Of a stretch of 64,000 nt of DNA, positions 62,985 through 64,000 are shown piece after piece. The stretch is from Coriobacteriia bacterium. Lineage in GTDB: Bacteria > Actinomycetota > Coriobacteriia > Anaerosomatales > SLCP01. How positions within the stretch are numbered: position 1 is the first letter of the stretch; each line of letters opens with the position of its first letter. The notes beneath the pieces were generated by a model that was given only the letters and a program-made list of their open reading frames with translations, was not told the origin of the DNA and did no database searches. Location of the stretch: contig JAUVXE010000008.1 in the NCBI GenBank assembly GCA_030603745.1, positions 5,675-69,674 of the forward strand. The letters run 5' to 3'. The translations under genes were made by a program, and so were the position numbers.

Positions 62985-63059
62985 GGTCGGCACGATGCGG
63001 ACGCCAGAAGCGGTGTCCGCGACCCTCGGCACAGCGAGAGGAGGTGCGGTAGCAGCATC

Positions 63060-63170
63060 ATGGTACGCCTTTCCGCGTTCGTGATGATGATGGACATGAT
63101 GATGACCCAGCCCGGGTCTCTTCGCGCATGCGACGGATCTGGGCGCCTCGGCCACCCGGCCGTAGCGTAG
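63060..63170 (+). CDS. Putative methionine-rich leader peptide (36 aa)
   Basis: MVRLSAFVMMMDMMMTQPGSLRACDGSGRLGHPAVA*; six ATG codons at 63084-63104; ends 48 nt before metY. Confidence 0.65.
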   Translation: MVRLSAFVMMMDMMMTQPGSLRACDGSGRLGHPAVA

Positions 63171-63218
63171 GTCGGGTACATCTATCCTCAGCATCCATGA
63201 CACGGAAGTGAGACGACC

Positions 63219-64000
63219 ATGAGCGAGCACACCGCACCCGAGACGGACGGCACGTCCGCACCCCGCACCCCCGGCTTCGACACGCGCGCCGTCCATGGCG
63301 GCGCGACCCCCGACCCCACCACGGGGTCGCGCGCGGTCCCGATCTACCAGACCGTCGCGTACAACTTCCGCGACACCGACCACGCCGCCGACCTCTTCGG
63401 CTTGCGCGAGTTCGGCAACATCTACTCGCGGATCATGAACCCCACCAACGACGTGCTCGAGCAGCGCGTCGCGGCCCTCGAGGGGGGCACGGCGGCGCTC
63501 GCGACCGCCTCGGGCCACTCCGCCGAGGTCCTCGCGTTGCTCAACGTGGCCGGCGCCGGGGACTCGATCGTCGCCTCGACGTCGCTCTACGGCGGCACGT
63601 GGAACATCTTCCTGCACACCTTCCGCAAGCTCGGGATCGAGGTCCGGTTCGTCGAGACCACCGACACGGAGGGTTTCGCCAAGGCGAGCGACAAGACCAC
63701 CAAGGCGTGGTTCGTCGAGACGATCGGTAACCCGCGCCTCGACGTGCCCGACCTCGCCGGACTCGCCGAGCTCGGCCGCAGCTTCAACATCCCGCTCTTC
63801 GTCGACAACACGTTCGCCACGCCGTATCTCTGCCGCCCGATCGAGCACGGCGCGGCGGTCGTGATCCACTCGCTCACCAAGTGGATCGGCGGGCACGGGA
63901 CGTCGATCGGCGGCATCCTCGTCGACGGCGGGAACTTCGACTGGGGCGGCGGGCGGCACCCCTGGTTCACCGAGGAGGACCCGAGCTACCACGGCCTGAA
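63219..64000 (+). CDS. metY: O-acetylhomoserine aminocarboxypropyltransferase/sulfhydrylase (partial, runs off the window)
   Basis: [52 protein letters not shown]. Confidence 0.93.

Follow-up and report, generated by a model that had tools for sequence, protein, structure and literature searches.

A conserved Met-codon leader upstream of metY-metX in Coriobacteriia, a candidate methionine-sensing ribosomal attenuator

Methionine genes are, in the textbook account, controlled by SAM riboswitches, T-boxes or repressors. The RNA-based control of these genes is provided by SAM riboswitches and by Met-specific T-boxes, the latter reading the charging of tRNA-Met. Leaders of the erm type are translational attenuators that hide a ribosome binding site (RBS). 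In mycobacteria, short ORFs (sORFs) with runs of cysteine codons have been described, among them Ms5788A. According to the accessible part of that report, an exceptionally stable duplex takes up nearly all of the Ms5788A leader plus the 3' UTR, ribosomes that wait for the charged tRNA keep it from forming, and termination plays no part (Canestrari et al., 10.1101/834739). The accessible part of a further article gives a general statement on attenuation by polycysteine sORFs (PMC13236596). A comparative survey of Actinobacteria from 2005 did not, in the portion accessible to us, see conserved RNA structure before methionine operons (PMC1262725). Likewise, the accessible parts of Naville and Gautheret (2010) and of Korolev et al. 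(2016) do not mention a leader-peptide attenuator for methionine, and we found none in a search of the main texts of a collection of open-access articles.

The locus described here lies at the end of a 64,000-nucleotide stretch of a Coriobacteriia genome (contig JAUVXE010000008.1), to which we refer as the window. On the forward strand, an ORF of 36 codons plus TAG (63060-63170), encoding MVRLSAFVMMMDMMMTQPGSLRACDGSGRLGHPAVA, precedes metY, the gene for O-acetylhomoserine sulfhydrylase, which starts at 63219 and runs past the window end at 64000. The best NCBIfam families for metY score 378 bits, a value that reflects the 260 residues inside the window; the whole gene has 444 codons. It is followed by metX (homoserine O-acetyltransferase, 435 bits against a cut-off of 331), with the stop and start codons of the two genes overlapping. 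The position of the leader directly before a methionine-pathway gene, proposed in an earlier reading made from the letters of the window (the sequence-only reading), is borne out by the NCBIfam match. The short ORF before metYX comes with a Shine-Dalgarno (SD) sequence, a start codon and repeated codons for methionine, the product to which the operon leads. The SD-like AGGAGG is at 63039-63044, and the leader start ATG, at 63060, follows after a 15-nt gap. The presumed sensing codons, at 63084-63104, are three ATG, GAC and three further ATG, which makes six Met codons in seven positions; the leader stop TAG is at 63168-63170. The coordinates and the reading frame given in the sequence-only reading both check out.

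We asked how often such a run occurs in this genome, which comprises 2,141,497 bp with 70.1% GC and an ATG frequency of 0.0099 per position. At least five ATG in seven consecutive codons were found at the leader locus alone, in all six frames of the whole genome. A chance origin of the Met run is excluded, in keeping with the initial judgement that it was improbable. A simple scan for a sigma-70-like promoter upstream found none. An Rfam search of positions 62700-63500, with E values up to 10, returned no SAM, T-box or other meaningful match, which agrees with the earlier failure to see such an element at the locus. The only SAM-I riboswitch match in the genome (44.8 bits, just above the cut-off) lies outside the window, directly upstream of an ORF for SAM synthetase (metK; G000:C2:44461-44594, locus L132, about 1501-1634), and SAM-IV had zero matches in the whole genome. 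Labour may be split within this one genome, such that metK would read SAM and metYX would read Met-tRNA.

Assembled RNA contigs touch the leader in related organisms. A 248-nt contig from a relative, in one metatranscriptome library, spans 63077-63246, from the Met run into metY, and two other RNA libraries (X17 and X19) contain contigs of relatives on parts of the leader. Among the contigs of RNA run X21, whose sample may have been the source of this DNA, none was found on the stretch. Assembled contigs carry no transcript ends and may stem from DNA carry-over; they are a weak hint at most that the leader and metY lie on one RNA.

We examined the conservation of the leader in 61 genomes, namely the window's own and relatives from its genus, family and order; metY was found in 39 of these. 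A Met-run leader lies upstream of metY in 37 of the 39 metY-bearing genomes. All 30 metY loci that were fetched, including that of the window, have a homologous upstream frame with a Met run, which takes a variant form at two of them (MMMELMAQPGS at L003 and MMRGMMTQPGS at L021), and seven further metY genomes have the motif just upstream of the gene. Of the two remaining genomes, G051 is interrupted by a contig end, and G029 has metY without a Met leader. In G029 (L133, G029:C7:226150-226750), metY follows ~90 nt after the end of a gene that we labelled Rrf2-like by eye from its translation, as if one regulatory device had naturally taken the place of another. In the 22 genomes where metY had no match, the motif was absent too.

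Among 401 genomes sampled from the class, ATGATGATGNCCNNGCCNGG is present in 73 of the 146 that belong to the window's order and in 6 of the 255 others; a reversed control pattern had no match in the same 401 genomes. A stricter pattern, scanned in one genome per species across 185,579 species, matched 64 stretches. Sixty-three of them come from Coriobacteriia, Anaerosomatales, Actinomycetota or similar uncultured records and carry the leader frame; 60 of these were confirmed directly before metY, and at the other three an ORF in another frame was picked. The sequence-only reading had suggested checking whether the in-frame Met run is conserved, and it is kept by both counts (37/39 metY genomes and 63/64 scan matches). 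The 64th stretch (L122, in a record named Pseudolabrys) is a chance pattern match within a longer frame, as is L140 (G083).

Two public MAGs each carry two differing copies of the leader and metY on two contigs (L116 and L124; L084 and L126), which could be paralogues or could reflect mixed strains in the bins. At another locus (L131, WRDS01000046.1), the leader is shortened to MKAFADVMMQMGMMMTRPGS, with the stop codon right behind the PGS codons and 139 nt from metY. This variant could help to tell if the site of the stop codon is important.

Conservation of the SD, the start codon, the reading frame and the Met codons gives the leader the appearance of a translated frame. Every leader examined contains a homologous ORF, of 19-40 codons, and GGAGG is invariant in all 51 aligned leaders. 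When the start was defined by position alone, as the first ATG or else GTG at 11-18 nt past GGAGG, it was in frame with the Met run in 72/72 distinct leaders. The distances from the start to the Met run are 36, 39 and 42 nt, each divisible by three, an argument that draws on just three length classes. The start codon (ATG, or GTG in a few cases) lies 13-16 nt past GGAGG in all leaders examined. Genome-wide, the spacing between GGAGG and the ATG of long ORFs has its peak at 4-11 nt, with 13-16 nt falling in the tail, and a gap outside the genome's usual range counts against the attenuator model. The sequence-only reading had listed the 15-nt gap as a caveat for this locus; the distance is right, and the supposed weakness is not peculiar to the locus since the long gap occurs in every leader. 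Conservation of the gap suggests that it is likely to be functional.

The Met codons themselves are under strong constraint. The last three ATG are retained in 49-51 of the 51 aligned leaders, and the positions of the first triplet vary (ACG, GCG, GTG and others). Mean column identity is 0.95 for the Met strand versus 0.61 for the strand that it pairs with, suggesting that the Met codons are constrained beyond the needs of pairing. Behind the run come the codons ACC, NNG, CCC, GGG and TCT, which form the 5' arm of a hairpin (hairpin A, below). GGG and TCT are rare codons in a high-GC genome. The post-run codons, GGG and TCT included, keep the hairpin arm, which argues for a constraint on the RNA rather than on the peptide.

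The leader is predicted to form a fold of ~190 nt. In it, the SD and AUG of metY are held in a long closing stem whose other strand is made up of the leader's 5' part and the Met run; the AGGAGG of the leader is single-stranded at the foot of this fold. In the MFE fold, the closing stem has as its 5' strand positions 63055-63094, which run from the last nucleotides of the spacer through the leader start and codons 1-8 halfway into the Met run. The 3' strand of P1 and of the closing stem (63174-63224) consists of GGGU, CAUC, a segment beginning UCCUCA, the metY SD region GGAAGUGAG and the metY AUG. The main stem joins 63055-63094 to 63185-63224 by 34 pairs and is continued by pairing of 63098-63101 with 63179-63182 and of 63105-63108 with 63174-63177. 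The Met run itself is a strand of the stem and supplies the 5' strand of P1. The leader start region, UCAUGGU, is paired with the metY start region, ACCAUGA. Part of the spacer between the leader SD and start (63045-63059) pairs with the first metY codons.

Hairpin A (63110-63144), which is long and GC-rich, begins 6 nt past the last Met codon. It pairs GCCCGGGTC (63110-63118) with GATCTGGGC (63136-63144) and extends to a 14-bp stem (63110-63125 with 63130-63144). Its outer stem, GCCCGG/CCGGGC, is nearly invariant across the leaders, and its inner stem shows compensatory changes, one pair being GC in 14 leaders, UA in 13, CG in 3 and UG in 3. The remaining tip region (63145-63177) can form either of two competing small hairpins, the one present in the MFE fold (63145-63153/63158-63166) or hairpin B (63154-63161 with 63170-63177); the leader stop codon also lies in this region. 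In most relatives the stop codon is in or beside the loop of the hairpin-B counterpart. Hairpin B and the top of P1 compete for GGGU in this genome; in other families both coexist. Hairpins A and B had been proposed from the sequence at these same positions, and covariation, suggested at that stage as a check, is seen in hairpin A.

We compared folds across relatives. Full-length folds of seven divergent leaders share one architecture, with three hairpins (A, a small one and B) at its tip. Every one of the 51 full-length leaders pairs the metY RBS with its own 5' part. The mean per-nucleotide pairing probability of the metY RBS in these 51 leaders is 0.64 to the 5' part and 0.00 to the middle. 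RNAalifold recovered only the outer stem of hairpin A from the raw MAFFT alignment, and single-sequence folds were therefore projected onto the alignment. The MAFFT alignment, made without fitting to any structure, has 72.9% pairing cells, versus 34-43% with slid partners, and 107 cells with double changes, versus 63.5 +/- 8.2 after shuffling (0/500 as high). In an alignment fitted with the covariance model R1, which is biased towards structure and includes two spurious opposite-strand rows, double changes occur in 36 of 54 pairs, versus 22.8 +/- 2.3 (0/500 as high), and slid controls of this alignment have double changes in 21-30 pairs. A second genomic match to R1 (20813-20963 of the window, reverse strand, 23.8 bits) was judged a false positive, lying antisense within a 640-aa transporter-like ORF (20331-22253, forward strand).

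The pairing of the leader with metY was also seen in an alignment-free swap test with 13 dissimilar representatives. The duplex that each leader's variable 5' part forms with the metY RBS downstream of it has a mean energy of -29.2 kcal/mol, versus -20.4 kcal/mol for swapped partners, and none of 10000 permutations was as low; only four of the 13 native pairs beat every swap. Consistent with these comparisons, the closing stem, as predicted from the folds, covaries, and the metY SD and AUG lie inside it. The fold of the window sequence alone (-81.8 kcal/mol) beats dinucleotide shuffles only moderately (z -2.28; 5/200 as good). By contrast with the 5' part of the leader, GTCTCTTC (63116-63123), which the sequence-only reading had put forward as an alternative partner for the metY initiation region (63205-63214), showed no preference for it: the native energy was -12.0 kcal/mol versus -11.3 kcal/mol when swapped, and 1677 of 10000 permutations did equally well. 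Rather than GTCTCTTC, it is the leader's 5' portion (spacer, start codon and codons 1-8) that pairs with the metY initiation region. The parts of the predicted device and their co-evolution are established by sequence comparison.

Related leaders occur before a second kind of methionine gene. We ran R1 on 150 genomes across the phylum, which gave weak matches of 23-28 bits, and one of three weak matches led to leaders of a MetN type in another order of the class. There, a short frame (MFTTAAHMMMVMMMPSPGHFAMP...ETGRLR) lies 63 nt before a gene for an ABC ATPase, for which the best family is MetN (315 bits versus 233 bits for the next); the score is under the full-length cut-off because the ORF is without its C-terminal part. 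The same leader was found in three more species of that genus, and a related leader, MSSLFVHTMDMMMPKPGLVGLRADAQA, precedes a MetN-like gene in another family. The MetN-type leaders (MMMVMMMPSPG and MDMMMPKPG) thus lie 60-75 nt upstream of the gene in five genomes (L134, 1426-1590 and 1654-2403; L137, L138, L139 and L141). In the two MetN-type leaders that were folded, the Met run pairs with a downstream CAUC-rich segment, the GCCCGG/CCGGGC hairpin is present, and the closing stem reaches the SD of the transporter gene. This form is sporadic, with 4 of 151 genomes of that order matching a looser pattern. The presence of leaders at both methionine synthesis and methionine uptake genes argues for methionine specificity. 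We lean slightly towards a class-wide Coriobacteriia family of Met-tRNA-sensing ribosomal attenuators that would act on metYX in one order and on MetN-like uptake genes in others.

We propose that the metY leader is a ribosome-mediated attenuator that senses methionine via charged elongator Met-tRNA and hides the RBS of metY-metX, and we give this reading a probability of about 0.65. We infer the methionine response from the sequence of the leader. The SD and start codon of the regulated gene are predicted to pair with leader-ORF sequence that a stalled ribosome could cover. The closed fold pairs both start codons and leaves GGAGG alone free, and we therefore propose that the decision is made on the nascent transcript. 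A first ribosome would load on the leader while the metY strand of the stem has yet to be transcribed. With ample Met-tRNA, it would reach the stop codon at the tip and leave, and the stem would lock both starts, keeping metYX off. With scarce Met-tRNA, the ribosome would stall on the Met run, right before the very stable hairpin A. The stalled ribosome, probably together with a following one, would cover the 5' strand, such that the metY SD and AUG would be open and metYX would be translated. Rho-dependent polarity may be a secondary effect.

We modelled ribosome footprints on the leader by equilibrium folding. One 28-nt footprint on the Met run left the metY SD unpaired at 0.42 versus 0.41-0.45, and the AUG region at 0.26 versus 0.26-0.30. 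A second ribosome at the leader start took the unpaired value of the AUG region only as far as 0.45; the gain was 0.15 or more in 29 of the 51 leaders. Footprints thus barely open the metY RBS at equilibrium, suggesting that queuing, steric effects or co-transcriptional kinetics must contribute. Scarce methionine would also lower the charging of the initiator tRNA, which counts against sensing through Met-tRNA. Mutual pairing of two start codons, together with a conserved, over-long SD spacing, is unusual and could inform the timing of translational attenuators.

Three other explanations were weighed against the proposed attenuator. The same Met-codon stalling sensor could have premature termination, or Rho-dependent polarity inside metY, as its output, with hiding of the RBS being only the first step. 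We consider this unlikely. In its favour, the RNA from hairpin B to the metY SD is rich in C and poor in G, Rho would have access to metY when the gene is not translated, and polarity is discussed for the mycobacterial precedent in the accessible part of that report (10.1101/834739). However, the number of terminator-like sites (hairpin plus U-tract) in positions 62700-63400 is 0, with no U tract seen by eye either, the unstructured RNA before metY amounts to only ~45 nt, and a covarying stem over the metY SD and AUG is what translational control predicts. The expectation of the sequence-only reading that control would be translational or Rho-dependent, there being no U-tract terminator, fits these data, given the placement of the metY SD and AUG inside the covarying closing stem.

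The two other explanations do without a methionine readout by the ribosome. The leader could be a structured RNA that binds a ligand or a protein at a riboswitch-like multi-branch junction, the ORF being incidental or merely unfolding the RNA. Its big, covarying, multi-branched structure with invariant stretches such as GCCCGG/CCGGGC would suit such a role, and this organism does use a SAM-I riboswitch at metK. Yet invariance falls mostly on the Met codons and on bases paired in stems rather than on junctions or loops, the Met strand is conserved past what pairing needs, and every leader keeps the SD, start, frame and stop; together with the lack of any Rfam family at the locus, this leads us to regard a riboswitch-like RNA as improbable. 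We judge it marginally less probable again that translation of the leader opens the fold constitutively, as in translational coupling without a methionine readout, or that the Met-rich peptide is itself functional. The closing stem must melt under any leader ribosome, as coupling would have it, and the motif MDMMMTQPGS is conserved, as expected of a functional peptide. The residues behind the run nevertheless vary where the stem stays intact (Q/R/W/S, all NNG), and GGG and TCT persist despite their rarity, a pattern pointing to a constraint on RNA rather than on peptide. For both coupling and peptide function, the occurrence of the leader at two different methionine operons is hard to explain without methionine specificity.

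If the proposed attenuator is real, it would fill a long-standing gap: methionine is not known to have a leader-peptide sensor of the kind described for Trp, His, Leu, Thr, Phe, Ile/Val and Cys. The metY leader is a well-defined and testable example, since it comes in ~70 natural variants, its structure covaries, and G029 offers a natural case of loss. Cultivated members of the order have been reported (PMC9686372). It resembles the leaders trpL, hisL, leuL, thrL and ilv, and the mycobacterial ilvB1 uORF as presented in the accessible part of PMC13236596, in carrying tandem cognate codons. As in these classical leader-peptide attenuators, the position of the ribosome would choose between RNA folds. 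Unlike classical attenuators of the trp/his type, however, the metY leader has no terminator hairpin with a U tract, and the SD and AUG of metY itself belong to the fold. No mutually exclusive pair of hairpins with comparative support was found, although hairpin B and the top of P1 may compete in this genome. It would also differ from SAM riboswitches and T-boxes in that the reading device would be the ribosome.

On our best reading, which is by analogy, the metY leader is most like the mycobacterial polycysteine sORFs. As far as the accessible description of Ms5788A goes, the two share a short ORF with a run of codons for the pathway's own amino acid, the inclusion of most of the leader in one stable duplex, and control that is proposed to act without termination. 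The metY leader differs from the polycysteine sORFs in having Met rather than Cys codons and in its lineage, Coriobacteriia. Polycysteine sORFs are leaderless, with transcripts that begin at the start codon, whereas the metY leader ORF has a conserved GGAGG 13-16 nt before its start. The metY leader carries its sensing run midway along the 5' strand and has three hairpins at the tip, and the targets of the Met leaders are metYX and MetN-like transporter genes.
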